DNA of 64,000 bases, from IMG/VR virus record IMGVR_UViG_3300033146_004128, positions 64,001 to 128,000 of that record; one strand, 5' to 3'. The stretch is from a virus. The notes under the pieces are model-generated. The model saw only the letters and a program-made list of their open reading frames with translations, made no database searches and had not been told where the DNA came from. The position numbers were made by a program, and so were the translations under genes. This document shows, piece by piece, positions 497 through 30,826 of the stretch (positions are counted from its first letter, which is position 1; each line of letters starts with the position of its first letter).

Positions 497-505
497 TGTT
501 ATAAT
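497..505 (+). promoter_or_regulatory. Extended -10 promoter element (TGtTATAAT)
   Basis: Exact TGnTATAAT in the intergenic gap, 50 nt upstream of ATG 556 and its AAGGA RBS. No canonical -35 seen. Confidence 0.7.
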
Positions 506-6105: not shown

Positions 6106-7935
6106 ATGGGATCAACGTTTAGTGGAAAATTATACGACAGAAGGTTTATGGGTAAGTATAATAACCTATCCAGTGTATACGCAGACATTCTGCCAAATGA
6201 TATCAAGGAAGTCATACAGTGGTCAGAGTTCATTGTAGCAAACGTACCTACTGTAGCATCAGCATTGGACAAGATGTCAAGTGTTGCCATTACAGCTCTA
6301 CAGTATATGACGTCAGACCTTACAGAGATGTCTTCGACAGACGCTAAGTCATGGAAGAATATCCTTGAAGAAGAAATGGACATAGAAGAGAAGCTACAAG
6401 AGATAGGGTTCAACTATCTTCTTAACGGTAACGTATTCCTATCTGTGTTCTTCCCAGTACATAGAACTGTTACATGCATGAAGTGCAAGACTTCACTGTC
6501 ACAGGAGAGATTCTCTTCAGTAAGCAAACTGAAGCCAGAGATGGAAGAGATGCTAGTGCAGAACAATGGTAAGAGAGACGGAAAGAAGATGCCAGGAGAG
6601 AAACAGCACTCAAAGAAGAAGGTGTTGGTATTCAAGGGTGCTTGTCCTGCCTGTGCATCAAAGTCAATATTCACCATACAGGACATAAAGGTGAAGAATA
6701 TGCAAGGGGTAAATGTTGTTAACTGGCCTGTGAACAGTATGAACTTCGTATCTGACAACATCACAGGTAGGAGTACATATTACTACAAGATGCCAAACTC
6801 AACAAAGAAGATGATCACTTCAGGGTTCCTTGACATGCTATTCCATCAGCCATTAGATATGATAGAGTCAGCAGTAAACAATACAGCAGTAAAGTTTGAT
6901 CAGGATAAGATTCTACATATAAAGAGAAAGAAGATGTCCGGGACAAACACAGGATGGGGAATGCCTATACTTACCTCATCGATACCAGAGATGATCTCTC
7001 TACTCTTGCTTAGAAAGTCTCAAGAGAGAATACTATCGGATATGATATTCCCGTTACGAGGATTGTCACCAAGGGCAGCAGGGTCTGATGGTAACGCAGT
7101 GTACAACTTCATGTCCGGAAGTGACCTGACGAAGAAGGTAGAGGCTATTCTGATGCAACATAAGAACAATCCTACCTCTGTAAAGTTCTTCCCTATACCT
7201 CTAGACCAAGTGAATGCATTCGGAGAGGGTAAGGCACTCAACCTAAGCGAAGAGATAGACCAGATATCTACAATGATTATGACTTCTATTGGTGTACCTA
7301 TTGAGTTCGTAAAAGGTGGTCTTGGATATACAGCTGCCGGTGCATCTATTAGAGTGCTTGAAAACCAGTTGATGGGACTAACAAACTCTATGGAGAAGGT
7401 AGCAAACTTTGTAGCCAAGCAGATAGCAACATTCACAGATAAGAAACAGGTAAGGATTAAGATTACTCCATTCAGAATCATCGATGACCTTGCAGAGAAG
7501 CAAATCTTACTTCAAATGTACCAAGGACAGAAAGTATCAGATCACACTATGGCATCTATGTTCAAGCTCGATGCGAAGACAGAGAACGACAGAATGGAAG
7601 AGGAAGCAAAAGCAGGTGCAAGAACACAGGCTGCTGTGCAAGAGTATATGCAGAACATATCTCAGAACCTCGAAGAGAAGGCAAAGACAGAGGCTATGCT
7701 ATCTCAGAGTTCTACTCAGCAAGTCAATCAACAAGCTATCATGCAAGAGGCAGATCAGATGGCAGCACAGTTACAGCAGATGGAATCCGGGCAGCGTAAG
7801 TCAGAGATGGATCGTCTTCAGAAAGAGAACTGGCTATTATATGTTGCTACTAAGGAACGCATGGAGTTCAATGGTCGCAAGGACGCTACACAGGCTGCGC
7901 AACAACAACAAGCTGAACAGCAAGGAGGAATGTAA
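6106..7935 (+). CDS. Phage portal protein with a CxxC...CxxC insertion
   Basis: 609 aa with portal-like layout: PTVASALDKMSS helix, ILHIK...GWGMP motif, IMTSIGVPIEFVKGG stem helix, Q/E-rich helical C-terminus. AGGAG RBS. Confidence 0.7.
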   Translation: MGSTFSGKLYDRRFMGKYNNLSSVYADILPNDIKEVIQWSEFIVANVPTVASALDKMSSVAITALQYMTSDLTEMSSTDAKSWKNILEEEMDIEEKLQEIGFNYLLNGNVFLSVFFPVHRTVTCMKCKTSLSQERFSSVSKLKPEMEEMLVQNNGKRDGKKMPGEKQHSKKKVLVFKGACPACASKSIFTIQDIKVKNMQGVNVVNWPVNSMNFVSDNITGRSTYYYKMPNSTKKMITSGFLDMLFHQPLDMIESAVNNTAVKFDQDKILHIKRKKMSGTNTGWGMPILTSSIPEMISLLLLRKSQERILSDMIFPLRGLSPRAAGSDGNAVYNFMSGSDLTKKVEAILMQHKNNPTSVKFFPIPLDQVNAFGEGKALNLSEEIDQISTMIMTSIGVPIEFVKGGLGYTAAGASIRVLENQLMGLTNSMEKVANFVAKQIATFTDKKQVRIKITPFRIIDDLAEKQILLQMYQGQKVSDHTMASMFKLDAKTENDRMEEEAKAGARTQAAVQEYMQNISQNLEEKAKTEAMLSQSSTQQVNQQAIMQEADQMAAQLQQMESGQRKSEMDRLQKENWLLYVATKERMEFNGRKDATQAAQQQQAEQQGGM

Positions 7936-8132
7936 TGAGCAAGAAGAAGATAACATCAGTAAGCATACCATGTAGGGGACTTAAGCCTTCTAAGACAAGA
8001 GGGTTTAGTTGTAAGCAAGAAGTTAAGACAGCAAAGCAATTCATCACAACTCACAGAGCTAGATCTAAGGGATACGATTCACTATCTGACATTCCCGTAT
8101 CTATTCATAAATTTATAGACTCAACAGGATAA
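7935..8132 (+). CDS. Small basic hypothetical protein
   Basis: 65 aa, TAATG-coupled to the portal stop, fills the gap exactly, contains THRARSKGY. Confidence 0.6.
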   Translation: MSKKKITSVSIPCRGLKPSKTRGFSCKQEVKTAKQFITTHRARSKGYDSLSDIPVSIHKFIDSTG

Positions 8133-15706: not shown

Positions 15707-15715
15707 TGATATAAT
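15707..15715 (+). promoter_or_regulatory. Extended -10 promoter element (TGaTATAAT)
   Basis: Exact TGnTATAAT upstream of the AAGGA RBS and ATG 15752. Confidence 0.7.
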
Positions 15716-18839: not shown

Positions 18840-18848
18840 TGCTATAAT
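18840..18848 (+). promoter_or_regulatory. Extended -10 promoter element (TGcTATAAT)
   Basis: Exact TGnTATAAT upstream of the AAGGA RBS and ATG 18875. Confidence 0.7.
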
Positions 18849-22014: not shown

Positions 22015-22023
22015 TGCTATAAT
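22015..22023 (+). promoter_or_regulatory. Extended -10 promoter element (TGcTATAAT)
   Basis: Exact TGnTATAAT upstream of the AAGGA RBS and ATG 22050. Confidence 0.7.
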
Positions 22024-26547: not shown

Positions 26548-26556
26548 TGCTATAAT
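26548..26556 (+). promoter_or_regulatory. Extended -10 promoter element (TGcTATAAT) upstream of the RNA polymerase gene
   Basis: Exact TGnTATAAT in the 37-nt gap before ATG 26579. Confidence 0.7.
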
Positions 26557-26578: not shown

Positions 26579-29500
26579 ATGACAAGTCTTAACAGGGATC
26601 ACAATGAGATAAATGAAGCTATTCACAATGAGATAGTTAAGGCTTTCGAGGGAAGAAAGGTAGAGGGAAAGACAAAGACTCTTGAGTACTCCAATGTGAC
26701 AGGAGCAAAAGCAGACATGTCATACCGAAAGCTAACAGATGCAATAAACTCAGGTGGAACAATAGCTAGAAAATATAAAGCTGATGTTACGATAAGAGAT
26801 AACGAGACCGGTAAAGTACTTGATAAGAAGAGTGGTGTACATATAGGGGAGACTCCAATTTACACAAAGAAGGGTGGGTTGGTTGTTGACGGGAATACAT
26901 ACAACCTTCCTAGCCAGATAAGACTTAAGCCTGGTGCGTATACTCTCAACAAGGCAAATGGCGATGTTGAGACTATGATGAACGTAAAGAACGGAAGAGG
27001 TATGAAGCTTGTATCTCCTCAGGACAAAGATGATGTAAAATTGCAGATAGGTTCAAGACAGTTTAATCCTCTTGATGTCGCAAAGATACTTGGTGCAACG
27101 GATAAGGAATTGTCATCAAACATAGGTAAAGATGTTGCTGCTCACTTAAATAAGAAGTCGAATGTTGAAGGAACAGCACTTAAGCTATCTCAGACCCTTG
27201 GGCTTGTCGGTCCAGACATAACACCTCCACACAAAGAAGTGATATCAAATCTACGAGATTATTTTGGAAAGACTGAGCTAGATACAAGCGTAACTACTCA
27301 TACACTTGGAAGGGCAATAGATAAGATTGATAAAGATGCGATAATGCTTGGTATCAAAAGGAATGTTGCTGTCAAGAGAGGGACAGAAGAGGAAGATGAC
27401 AAAGAAAACCTAATGTTCAAGAAGATTATCCCTCCAGAGAAACTTATGGTAGAGGGTGTAAAGAGGGACCTAATGAAGCCAGAGGCAAGAATGAAAGGTC
27501 TTCTGAATAACCCATTTAACCATGCAAGCATAACAGAGGTTCTTTCTGAGCCTACATTGAAGCATGCAGCAAAGAAGTTTGTGACAACAAGTGCGATCTC
27601 AAGAATGCCTGAAGAGTACAATCCATTACATACATTGCAAGGGAGTAGTGATATAACTCCATTGGGAGAAGGCGGTATAACATCTACCGAGATGATAACA
27701 CCATCTGTAAGGTCACTACACCTATCACAGCTTGGATTTATAGACCCTATAAAGTCTCCAGAGGGTGCAAACACTGGAGTCACATTAAGTACGACTCACG
27801 GGGCTTATATAGACGACAAGGGTAATGCTGCCATGAAGGTTAAGAACTTAAAGTCTGGGAAGATTGAGACAAAGACTGTGGCAGACCTATGGGACAAGAA
27901 GATAGCGTTCCCTGATCCAAACAAAAAAGGAGAGGTTGGCATAAGACACAAGAGCGATATCAGTGTAGGCAAGATGAAAGATGCTGACTATCAGATAACG
28001 CACTCTGAGAATATGTATGGGCCGGCTATGAACTCTCTTGGAATAATAAGTTCAAATGACCCAACCAGAAACCTTATGGCATCAAAGCATGTCATGCAAG
28101 CACTTCCTCTTGTTGATGGCGATGCTAACCCGGTAAGTCTGCTTGGAGCAAATGGAAAGAGTATGCTAGCAAACATAGCATCGAAGCACTTGCCTACTGC
28201 GAGTGTTTCCGGGACTGTTACAAGGGTTGATACTAGAGCTGGGAAGATACACTATAAAGATTCGTCTGGAAAAGAACACAACAGTGACTACGCTATATCT
28301 CCAATGCAATTAAATACAAAGACTTTCATACAGCATTCTCCTATAGTTAAAGCAGGAGACAAAGTAGAGGCAGGACAGGCTCTCGCTGATTCAAACTTCT
28401 CTAAGGGTGGAGAATTGGCCATAGGAAAGAATCTTAGAACAGCATGGATGATGTACCCAGGTACAAGAAATGATGCATTCGTATTGTCTGAGTCTGCAGC
28501 TAAAAAGATGACATCGGTACACTCTTCAAAGTTTGATATAGATGGGACAAAAGGTACGATACTGGATAAGAAGAAGTTTGCAGCCATGTTCCCAGAGGTT
28601 GTTAAGAAGATAAGCCTTGACAAATATGATGACAGGGGGATAATTCTTCCTGGTCAGACAGTGGCTAAAGATGAACCAATCGTTCTAGGCATGAAAAAGA
28701 TGGATCCATCAGAGGTCAGATTTGCAAATGACAAAGTAAAAAAATTACTATATGGCGGAATGGCACCGGTTATGCAAAAATGGAAGGGAGACAATTCAGC
28801 AACCATATCTCATGTCACAACCAAAGGATCCCAGCATAGAGTTATTGCTCAGTACAAGGCAGAGATGAAGACTGGAGATAAGCTTGCAGGTAGATCTGGA
28901 AACAAAGGTATTATCTCAGCTGTTATCCCAGACAAGGAGATGCCTAGAGATGAGAATGGAAAGCCTATAGAGCTTATACTTGGTGGTGCTGGTGTTAACT
29001 CAAGACAGAACCCTGCTCAGATCATAGAAGCTCAACTTACGGAGGTAGCAAAGAAGACAGGGAAGAAGTACGTACTTCCTCACTACACTCATGATGATCT
29101 TCATATATTTGCAAACAACGAGGCAAAGAAGAACAATGTGAACATGTATCATGAAATATACGACCCTGTAAGAAAGACCAAATTGAAGAATAAGGTATTT
29201 GTGGCAGACTACAATGTAATGAAGTTGTTCAAGCAGGGAGAGGGGACATACTCAGCAACAGGTCATGGCCCGGTTGACTCATTGAACCAACCGAAGAAAG
29301 GAGGAAAAGAGTCTGCGGCATCGATATCTAATATGGAGATAAACTCTCTATTGTCACATGACGCAAGAGACTTCCTCAAAGAGGTTGGAACAGTAAAATC
29401 ACAGAGAAACCAAAAGTGGTTCTCTGCATTTGAGTCAGGAGCTATACCGCCTGCACCTGAGAAGAAGTCTGCTAGGGACAATTTTCATGGGCTTCTGAAC

Positions 29501-30826
29501 CAACTCAACATATCAGTGAGAGAGGACGGAACAAGTAAACACATAGTACCTCTAACGGATAAAGATATAGTAAGGAAAAGTAGTGGTAAAATTATTGAGC
29601 CGTATGGTCTTAAGCGTAATACTCTGGATGCTGTCAGTGGCGGCTTTTATGACACTAGTGTATTTGGTGGACATGGTGAAAACTTCGGTCACATAGATCT
29701 TGGATCACATATCATTAACCCTCTATACAAAAAGCCAGTGGCGGCTATGATGGGTACCACAGAAAAAGGTCTAGATAAGATGATGGAGTCAGAGGGCATA
29801 TCAAACATATACAAAAAGATAAGTGGCTCAAGACTAAAGTCAACAGTGAATAGGTTAAAGAAAGACATAGAGAAGACTAAAGATACATCAAAAATAGACA
29901 GAAGCATGAAGGCGATAAAGGCTCTAAGAAAGATAGATAGTCTTGGAGATAACCCTGCAGACGTTATGTTTATGTCAAAAGTTCCGGTATTGCCTGTGAA
30001 GATGAGACCAATATCTAAACTTCCAGACGGCAGTATTATCGAGCATGATGTAAATCATCACTATGCGAACATAATAAGGGCGTCAAATTCTTTACAGAGA
30101 GCAAATGAATCCGATACTCCGGCACCAATAAAGAACAGACTTCATAGAGAGCTACAGGACCATGTTGGGGCAATGTACGGAACAAACAAATCTCCTGATC
30201 CAAAGATGGAGAGAAAAGAGGTCAAGAGCGTAATGGATGTTGTGGCCGGCTCAAACCCAAAGACATCTTTTTGGCATCAAAAGATACTTAAGAATAAGGT
30301 TTTTGGATCAGGTAGAGCTGTAATTGTTCCACACATAAAGACTATGAATATGGACCAAGTAGAGATACCTAAGTATGTAGCATGGAAAGCGTTTGAGCCT
30401 CATATAACAAGACGCATGTCTCAGATGGGTATACCTAATGATATGGCGAAAGACATGATTGACAAGAAGAACGAGACAGCAACCAATGTTCTGCATAGCG
30501 TTATGAAGGAGGTTCCGGTTGTTATAAACAGAGCACCTGCTCTTCATAAGCACAATATGACAGGACACTACGCAAAGATATCATCCGGAAATACAATGCA
30601 TATACCTCCTGAGATAGAGAATGGTCAAAATGCAGACTACGACGGAGATCAACTTGCAGTACATGTTCCTCTTGGGCATGCTGCAATAAAGGATGTTAAG
30701 ACAAAGCTTATGGCGTCAAAGCAGTTGTTTACTGATACGTCTAAGAATGGTCTGACAATGGGAATAGACTTGGATCCTTTTATAGGATTCTATGATGCTA
30801 CAAAACATAAGAATGGTAAAAAGTAA
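26579..30826 (+). CDS. rpoBC: Phage two-barrel DNA-directed RNA polymerase: beta-like chain fused to the N-terminal (catalytic) half of beta'
   Basis: Beta motifs IGETPIYTKKGGLVVDG, FIDPIKSPEGANTG, NDPTRNLMAS, GDKLAGRSGNKGIIS, GVNSRQNPAQI. Beta' motifs FGHIDL, VPVLPVKMRP, SGRAVI, NRAPALH, NADYDGDQLAVHVP. Ends at the equivalent of QDVVLGLYYMT. Confidence 0.95.
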   Translation: MTSLNRDHNEINEAIHNEIVKAFEGRKVEGKTKTLEYSNVTGAKADMSYRKLTDAINSGGTIARKYKADVTIRDNETGKVLDKKSGVHIGETPIYTKKGGLVVDGNTYNLPSQIRLKPGAYTLNKANGDVETMMNVKNGRGMKLVSPQDKDDVKLQIGSRQFNPLDVAKILGATDKELSSNIGKDVAAHLNKKSNVEGTALKLSQTLGLVGPDITPPHKEVISNLRDYFGKTELDTSVTTHTLGRAIDKIDKDAIMLGIKRNVAVKRGTEEEDDKENLMFKKIIPPEKLMVEGVKRDLMKPEARMKGLLNNPFNHASITEVLSEPTLKHAAKKFVTTSAISRMPEEYNPLHTLQGSSDITPLGEGGITSTEMITPSVRSLHLSQLGFIDPIKSPEGANTGVTLSTTHGAYIDDKGNAAMKVKNLKSGKIETKTVADLWDKKIAFPDPNKKGEVGIRHKSDISVGKMKDADYQITHSENMYGPAMNSLGIISSNDPTRNLMASKHVMQALPLVDGDANPVSLLGANGKSMLANIASKHLPTASVSGTVTRVDTRAGKIHYKDSSGKEHNSDYAISPMQLNTKTFIQHSPIVKAGDKVEAGQALADSNFSKGGELAIGKNLRTAWMMYPGTRNDAFVLSESAAKKMTSVHSSKFDIDGTKGTILDKKKFAAMFPEVVKKISLDKYDDRGIILPGQTVAKDEPIVLGMKKMDPSEVRFANDKVKKLLYGGMAPVMQKWKGDNSATISHVTTKGSQHRVIAQYKAEMKTGDKLAGRSGNKGIISAVIPDKEMPRDENGKPIELILGGAGVNSRQNPAQIIEAQLTEVAKKTGKKYVLPHYTHDDLHIFANNEAKKNNVNMYHEIYDPVRKTKLKNKVFVADYNVMKLFKQGEGTYSATGHGPVDSLNQPKKGGKESAASISNMEINSLLSHDARDFLKEVGTVKSQRNQKWFSAFESGAIPPAPEKKSARDNFHGLLNQLNISVREDGTSKHIVPLTDKDIVRKSSGKIIEPYGLKRNTLDAVSGGFYDTSVFGGHGENFGHIDLGSHIINPLYKKPVAAMMGTTEKGLDKMMESEGISNIYKKISGSRLKSTVNRLKKDIEKTKDTSKIDRSMKAIKALRKIDSLGDNPADVMFMSKVPVLPVKMRPISKLPDGSIIEHDVNHHYANIIRASNSLQRANESDTPAPIKNRLHRELQDHVGAMYGTNKSPDPKMERKEVKSVMDVVAGSNPKTSFWHQKILKNKVFGSGRAVIVPHIKTMNMDQVEIPKYVAWKAFEPHITRRMSQMGIPNDMAKDMIDKKNETATNVLHSVMKEVPVVINRAPALHKHNMTGHYAKISSGNTMHIPPEIENGQNADYDGDQLAVHVPLGHAAIKDVKTKLMASKQLFTDTSKNGLTMGIDLDPFIGFYDATKHKNGKK

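Follow-up and report, generated by a model that had tools for sequence, protein, structure and literature searches.

RNA polymerase (RNAP) has its beta and beta' subunits on a single polypeptide in Helicobacter and Wolbachia, whose rpoBC fusions join the C terminus of beta directly to the N terminus of beta' in one frame; the fused chains contain the whole of beta' and work with two alpha subunits and omega. Division of beta' after the catalytic barrel is a feature of cyanobacteria, which have separate gamma and beta' chains, and of jumbo phages of the phiKZ/AR9 type, and phiKZ-type enzymes also have beta divided into two or three polypeptides, exist as two paralogous sets (virion and nonvirion), and lack a sigma factor (PMC7598289). 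The mReC, deep-branching Caudovirales that encode RNAP, are large uncultured tailed phages with an enzyme that aligns readily with bacterial beta and beta' (PMC7481178), and the crAss-like phages, as cited in the same paper, carry both catalytic barrels on one polypeptide in a single-chain RNAP that gave no detectable match to beta or beta' profiles in the search made there (PMC7481178). The subject of this report is a further arrangement, found in the stretch of DNA of 64,000 nucleotides (nt) that comprises bases 64001 to 128000 of IMG/VR virus record IMGVR_UViG_3300033146_004128 (the window): one gene encodes beta fused to the N-terminal part of beta' (beta'-N), and a second, distant gene encodes the C-terminal part (beta'-C). 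The record, from an uncultured phage, is 187,664 bp long, has direct terminal repeats, and is rated complete. We consider that the fused gene probably encodes chain 1 of a working, phage-owned RNAP of the bacterial type that is built from two large chains.

Chain 1 (P0001) is the product of a single open reading frame (ORF) of 1415 amino acids (aa) in which Pfam domains of both subunits follow one another in the order Rpb2_3 (aa 345 to 407), Rpb2_6 (aa 541 to 908; E = 3e-36), Rpb1_1 (aa 1082 to 1224), and Rpb1_2 (aa 1293 to 1374; E = 1e-17). Beta is near-complete and lies in one continuous segment, with aa 72 to 959 aligning with residues 85 to 1035 of the 1104-residue cyanobacterial beta (8gzg_C; phmmer E = 2.6e-50) and the C-terminal beta motif LNQLNISV at aa 973 to 980 (nt 29495 to 29518), and the last 431 aa of the chain are collinear with E. 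coli beta' residues 179 to 514 (10ma_J; E = 8e-34). The best solved relatives are a bacterial beta (E = 2.6e-50) and a bacterial beta' (E = 1e-39), both in collinear alignment, and matches of this strength to the two bacterial subunits (E values of 1e-36 to 1e-50) exclude chance. The residues on which catalysis depends are intact: D767, K768, G774, and K776 of the lysine motif in the beta barrel and D1353, D1355, G1356, and D1357 of the metal motif in the beta' barrel are invariant among 29 homologues, with NADYDGD and NADFDGD, the form seen in cells, occurring at roughly equal frequency in the family. A preliminary description of the window, made from the sequence alone, had read beta as running without a stop into beta' motifs as far as NADYDGD and had judged the enzyme more bacterial-like than that of phiKZ. 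Both statements hold: the frame is open throughout and ends 58 aa after the motif, and the match to bacterial beta (E = 1e-50; phmmer) is far stronger than that to AR9 beta, which reached only an E value of 4e-6 (tblastn).

The stop codon of chain 1 is followed by a gap of 86 nt and then by an unrelated gene of 563 aa in a different reading frame; the latter was checked as a hidden beta'-C gene and rejected, and the closest relatives of chain 1 share its end position. Within the beta' part one element is missing. In bacterial beta' a zinc ribbon sits between the motifs GLFC..IFGP and RMGHIEL. The ribbon is absent from the corresponding site of chain 1 (Table 1), which contains no cysteine at all, and from all 41 aligned members of the family.

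At the junction, the counterpart of the beta C terminus is succeeded, after a handful of residues, by the counterpart of the beta' N terminus (IVPLTDKDI ... GGFYD ... FGHIDL), an order that is collinear and conserved in 41 homologues of 30 to 85% identity drawn from NCBI, JGI, ENA, and Logan assemblies. In comparison with a relative of 85% identity, the rate of replacement substitution (dN) at the junction is 0.094 with saturated silent sites, and the flanking parts are alike, the range being 0.09 to 0.12 with the silent rate (dS) saturated throughout; the NG86 estimate of dS is undefined under such saturation, and a numerical dN/dS is therefore omitted. Conservation of the alignment across the junction, together with low dN against saturated silent sites, indicates at the sequence level that the beta-beta'N fusion is genuine and under selection. 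No stop or frameshift at the junction and no continuation past position 30826, outcomes that the preliminary description had named as contrary to its reading, were found, and independent assemblies show conservation of both junction and stop.

The remainder of beta' is encoded outside the window by a gene for a protein of 580 aa (P0002, chain 2), which lies on the opposite strand, 68.6 kb beyond the fused gene's end. Pfam Rpb1_5 (E = 4e-14) and a family-specific hidden Markov model (HMM) each match this one site in the genome (163.4 to 165.2 kb), and Pfam Rpb1_4 has no six-frame match in the genome. Chain 2 aligns with residues 723 to 1084 of clostridial beta' (8i23_D; phmmer E = 1e-26) and also with E. 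coli beta' residues 719 to 1007, a region that covers the bridge helix, the second zinc site with its four cysteines (DCGT ... C ... CxxC), and TQL...H, the motif of the trigger loop. A model computed with AlphaFold on the basis of 23 relatives (mean predicted local distance difference test [pLDDT] score, 82) has a 36-residue helix at aa 168 to 203, corresponding to the bridge helix, and helices at aa 290 to 309 and 324 to 332 that flank a loop of low confidence; in a Foldseek search with this model the top matches were all bacterial beta' (E = 1e-24; template modeling [TM] scores of 0.63 to 0.70). No ORF within the window carries a bridge helix or a trigger loop, as had been noted at the outset, and the proposal that both barrels sit on one polypeptide with the mobile elements on a separate subunit was borne out by the presence of the beta'-C gene in the same complete genome. 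The HMM search that the preliminary description had recommended thus yielded an intact partner gene, where its absence would have implied a nonfunctional relic.

Table 1. Features of the two-chain polymerase and associated elements (window coordinates unless marked as genome coordinates)
Feature	Position	Strand	Remarks
Extended -10-like element TGCTATAAT	26548..26556	+	23 nt before the ATG of chain 1
Fused beta + beta'-N gene (P0001, chain 1)	26579..30826	+	Single ORF, 1415 aa, no internal stop
Beta portion (aa 1 to ~988)	26579..29542	+	Aligns with cyanobacterial beta; ends with LNQLNISV
Lysine motif of the beta catalytic barrel, GDKLAGRSGNKG	28874..28909	+	aa 766 to 777; conserved motif of the GRxGNKG type
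Junction	29519..29560	+	Final beta residues, linker of a few residues, first beta' residues (IVPLTDKDI); from the 41-homologue alignment
Beta' N-terminal portion	29543..30823	+	Clamp helices, lid/rudder region, catalytic barrel
Site of the missing beta' N-terminal zinc ribbon	29640..29705	+	GGFYD..FGG-HGENFGHIDL
NADYDGD, Mg2+-binding aspartate triad	30629..30649	+	aa 1351 to 1357; Tyr where cells have Phe
TAA stop codon	30824..30826	+	At about E. coli beta' residue 521; 58 aa past NADYDGD
Sigma-like gene (P0333)	Genome, 132026-132679 (209-aa form, about 132050-132679)	+	209 to 217 aa; ~4 kb beyond the window end; homologue of Arash gp10
Beta'-C gene (P0002, chain 2)	Genome, 163416-165158	-	580 aa; Pfam Rpb1_5; outside the window

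Set beside the described systems, this enzyme resembles each in part. Unlike the fused chains of Helicobacter and Wolbachia, chain 1 stops after the catalytic barrel, has the zinc ribbon deleted, and is accompanied by no alpha or omega gene that we could find. The cut in beta' after the catalytic barrel is shared with cyanobacteria and with phiKZ/AR9-type phages (PMC7598289), at a slightly different place: it falls at about residue 528 of the 625-residue gamma subunit, ~100 aa upstream of the cyanobacterial cut, and ~60 aa upstream of it in most family members. In contrast to phiKZ-type enzymes, beta is whole and fused, there is one enzyme set, and a sigma-like gene is present, and unlike the crAss enzyme, with which it shares the placing of both barrels on one polypeptide, chain 1 matches Pfam beta and beta' domains with E values of 1e-17 to 3e-36. 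With mReC it shares the phage type and the ease of alignment. The preliminary description had considered that it probably belongs there, an assignment that is not supported as written and is unproven: each of the rows examined in the mReC table gives separate, complete genes for beta (~1000 to 1560 aa) and beta' (899 to 1391 aa) (PMC7481178), so that the two-chain fused layout is not the mReC layout as far as those rows go. The mReC paper mentions fusion only for crAss-like phages (PMC7481178), and matching by metagenome number revealed no contig shared with mReC. A beta-beta'N fusion is not described in that paper or in the jumbo-phage RNAP reviews PMC7598289, PMC7824862, and PMC13282480, and no description of the two-chain layout was found in the literature searched, the coverage of which was incomplete.

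Among 50,697 phage records, the best matches to chain 1 are gp206 of Salmonella phage Arash (29% identity; 94% query cover; E = 2e-154) and the products of Vibrio phages D69, D181, and D148. Arash (OQ632216.1) shares the three-gene set: gp206 is a fused beta-beta'N chain of 1525 aa with the same four Pfam domains, gp216 is a separate beta'-C protein of 606 aa with Rpb1_5 (E = 2.5e-63 against chain 2), and gp10 is a small sigma-like protein, as in the present phage. Identity to the Arash and Vibrio phage enzymes is only 27 to 31%, and the beta'-C gene, 69 kb away on the opposite strand here, is 4.8 kb downstream of the fused gene and on its strand in Arash, and in D69 the downstream distance is 0.6 kb. 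Both the Arash record and the accompanying paper call gp206 "subunit beta" and leave the fusion unmentioned (PMC10585845). Two observations on these cultured relatives may be recorded. In D181 and D148 (OZ196140.1, 144128-149390) the match to the fused gene is broken into two parts within a span of 5.2 kb and overlies an annotated homing endonuclease, which looks like an intron or an endonuclease insertion in the polymerase gene. A structural protein of ~225 aa, gp7 of Arash (OQ632216.1, 7425-8105), and its counterpart at 7918-8118 in D69 weakly match the zinc-site region of beta'-C (aa 205 to 276; E = 3e-4 and 4e-5 per genome), a match that may be due to chance or to a shared zinc-binding element.

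The layout is widespread, occurring in hundreds of other phages, cultured ones among them. More than 100 fused homologues were found, on contigs of up to ~210 kb, and ~50 clusters of stand-alone proteins of ~580 aa share contigs with them. In nearly all of 80 IMG/VR loci there is one long open frame containing the beta' metal motif, and about half of these loci are single chains. A 192-kb relative of 85% identity agrees with the present phage in having the beta'-C gene on the other strand at a distance of ~70 kb, with syntenic flanking genes. When the beta'-N part was searched against 1.8 billion cluster representatives, 5144 matches were obtained (916 at an E value of 1e-30 or below), totals that mix the phage family with cellular beta'; among the best 150 of these 5144, which were classified by layout, 77 have the split seen in the window, 25 are single chains of ~2000 aa that run into a true beta'-C domain, 12 have long tails that lack a beta'-C domain and may be inteins, a further 30 are short proteins or fragments, and 6 are partitioned in other ways. 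One single-chain form (P0096) is collinear with chain 1 followed by chain 2, and in 114 of 120 full-length representatives a complete beta comes before beta' within one chain. Other boundaries also occur: in a relative from JGI 3300072488 (L018) a beta divided in two precedes an entire beta' of 1114 aa, and another (L019/L020) has an entire beta' joined to beta's C-terminal piece (1234 aa). On the polymerase chains of some members (P0057, P0064, P0068, P0070, P0075, P0076, P0082, and P0094) additional Pfam domains were noted, namely, LAGLIDADG/intein, SET, GNAT acetyltransferase, and M23 peptidase.

The history of the cut was viewed on a quick FastTree phylogeny of the beta'-N domain only. The family forms one well-supported clade, separate from two bacterial beta' sequences as well as from phages RHph_TM30 and Va2, in which beta' stands alone, and the clade of the window's gene is sister to three single-chain forms. 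The split and single-chain states require at least 5 changes on this tree; an initial count of 13 was inflated by the 12 long-tailed proteins that lack a beta'-C domain and fell to 5 after the domain check, and a fast tree of one domain does not establish the direction of change. In most split forms the end comes at about E. coli residue 565, following a short hairpin, and the close relatives of the window's gene stop ~35 aa earlier, both positions being upstream of the cyanobacterial gamma/beta' cut.

The inventory of subunits is short. Family-specific HMMs find one copy of each chain in the complete genome, and Pfam finds a single beta and a single beta'-N, so that there is one polymerase set. 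Pfam models for alpha (PF01193 and PF01000) and omega (PF01192) had no match in the complete genome and matched all 14 control genomes. The sigma-like gene was detected only through Arash gp10 (E = 1.9e-7), which is annotated as a sigma factor and matches Sigma70_r3 with an E value of 9e-9. Its product matches sigma F (1l0o_C; E = 6e-4) and, by eye, has a motif like that of region 2.2 (FD..K.ASF.THL) and a C-terminal helix-turn-helix; Pfam Sigma70_r2 and Sigma70_r4 gave no six-frame match in the genome. The top fold matches of its model (pLDDT, 75) are all sigma factors (D, B, A, WhiG, S, and 28) with TM scores of only ~0.25, low values that are as expected for a protein of flexible domains. 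It has 12 relatives, and those on the longest contigs share the contig with the polymerase. The alignment, in revealing the C-terminal helix-turn-helix, led us to abandon the idea that this sigma has no region 4 and hence depends on extended -10 promoters.

An extended -10-like element precedes chain 1 (Table 1), with no -35 match upstream of it. Sites of this kind, TGNTATAAT without a -35 element, number 26 in the genome, including those at window positions 497-505, 15707-15715, 18840-18848, 22015-22023, and 26548-26556, and ~11 of the 26 lie 18 to 51 nt before the start of a gene on the same strand, against ~2% expected by position. They look like a real promoter-like class, and their reader may be a host sigma factor or the phage sigma-like protein.

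The case for an active enzyme, as far as sequence can make it, lies in catalytic residues that are intact, in purifying selection, and in the completeness of the set of parts. Chain 1 holds the Mg2+ site and the clamp helices as well as the two catalytic barrels, and chain 2 adds to these the F-loop region, the bridge helix, and the trigger loop together with the second zinc site and the C-terminal part of beta'. By homology with the cyanobacterial gamma and beta' halves, the two chains would associate noncovalently. Because no alpha or omega gene was found, we suggest that the covalent link between beta and beta' may replace the alpha dimer in holding the large subunits together. Promoter recognition would be provided by the 209-aa phage protein, a putative member of the sigma-70 family, the binding of which to the core is predicted from homology. 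On the model of Arash, enzyme and sigma factor would be packed in the virion and injected with the DNA, and phage genes would be transcribed independently of the host polymerase; newly made enzyme, there being no other polymerase set in the genome, would also serve later transcription. In mass spectrometry of Arash virions gp206 was the most abundant protein (3516 spectra) and gp216 ranked fifth (1210 spectra), gp10 was likewise detected, and the authors proposed a role in early transcription (PMC10585845).

Several points weigh against this account of a self-sufficient, virion-borne enzyme. Alpha and omega analogues may be present in forms too divergent for Pfam, or host alpha may be used. 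The sigma-like protein scores 23.5 bits (E = 6e-5) on Sigma70_r3, below the Pfam cutoff of 25.3. Packing in the virion of this phage is inferred from homology to Arash, whose authors warn that abundant enzymes may copurify with particles (PMC10585845); the K-x-A motif, a proposed head-protease site, is absent from both chains; and the host-like extended -10 element before the gene also fits transcription by the host polymerase. The last two points are in keeping with a real enzyme that stays outside the virion, being made after infection to transcribe middle or late genes, with the early genes and the polymerase gene itself left to the host polymerase, and TGCTATAAT, 23 nt before the gene, and ~10 similar sites before other genes resemble host sigma-70/sigma-A promoters. 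Yet the phage's own sigma could just as well be the reader of the TGNTATAAT sites, Arash particles have both chains and the sigma-like protein among their most abundant proteins (PMC10585845), and the polymerase gene belongs to a one-strand block of large genes, 65 kb in length, in which a portal-like ORF is also found, and we regard a purely postinfection enzyme as somewhat unlikely.

We are more doubtful still that the sigma-like protein redirects the host polymerase, in the manner of T4 gp55 and SPO1 gp28, and that the phage enzyme uses another factor or none. Many phages do encode sigma factors for the host core, and the phage beta' lacks the zinc ribbon that in bacteria aids promoter contacts; the clamp helices of beta', the main docking site for sigma, are nevertheless present in chain 1, the sigma-like gene is found on the polymerase contig in all relatives with long contigs, and its Arash homologue is packed with the polymerase (PMC10585845). 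The fusion might finally be an artifact of assembly or frameshift, or the gene a decaying relic of a captured rpoBC operon, given that the sequence is a single metagenomic assembly. This is extremely improbable: the uninterrupted frame, the junction, and the stop recur in independent NCBI, JGI, ENA, and Logan assemblies and in cultured phages, the catalytic residues are invariant, replacement changes are few with silent sites saturated, and the matching beta'-C gene is intact.

The neighborhood of the gene adds little. A plus-strand block of 51 genes fills nearly the whole window, the flanking genes (937 and 563 aa) have no match among the phage records searched, and 18 large window ORFs gave only a weak portal match in PHROGs and weak lectin-type and Y_Y_Y matches in Pfam; because the neighboring ORFs resist annotation, a virion context for the polymerase gene cannot be demonstrated in this way. 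The portal candidate is a 609-aa ORF at window positions 6106-7935 on the plus strand (phrog_64; E = 3.5e-4), 19 kb upstream of the polymerase gene; in Arash the portal gene is two genes upstream of it.

Tentatively, and with less assurance than we attach to the two-chain enzyme itself, we picture a very large, undescribed family of phage RNAPs in which the beta-beta' link replaced the alpha platform, the zinc ribbon was lost, the cut in beta' was opened or closed at least 5 times, and the enzyme is virion-borne with its own sigma factor, amounting to an injected, sigma-dependent holoenzyme of the bacterial type composed of two or three proteins. Such an enzyme would represent the machinery of bacterial transcription in a natural minimal form, with two chains and a sigma factor and with no alpha, omega, or zinc ribbon found, and its closeness to bacterial RNAP allows modeling on solved structures. 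It has a bearing on the way in which large subunits come together when alpha is lacking, an open point for the phiKZ and AR9 enzymes (PMC7598289), and since the family includes a cultured phage of Salmonella Typhimurium and phages of Vibrio, these questions can be tested at the bench. For annotation, labels such as the "beta subunit" given to Arash gp206 hide half of beta'. More broadly, the family shows how freely the subunit boundaries of an ancient enzyme can move, which is relevant to arguments about the period before the last universal common ancestor that are drawn from the partitions of phage RNAPs (PMC7824862).

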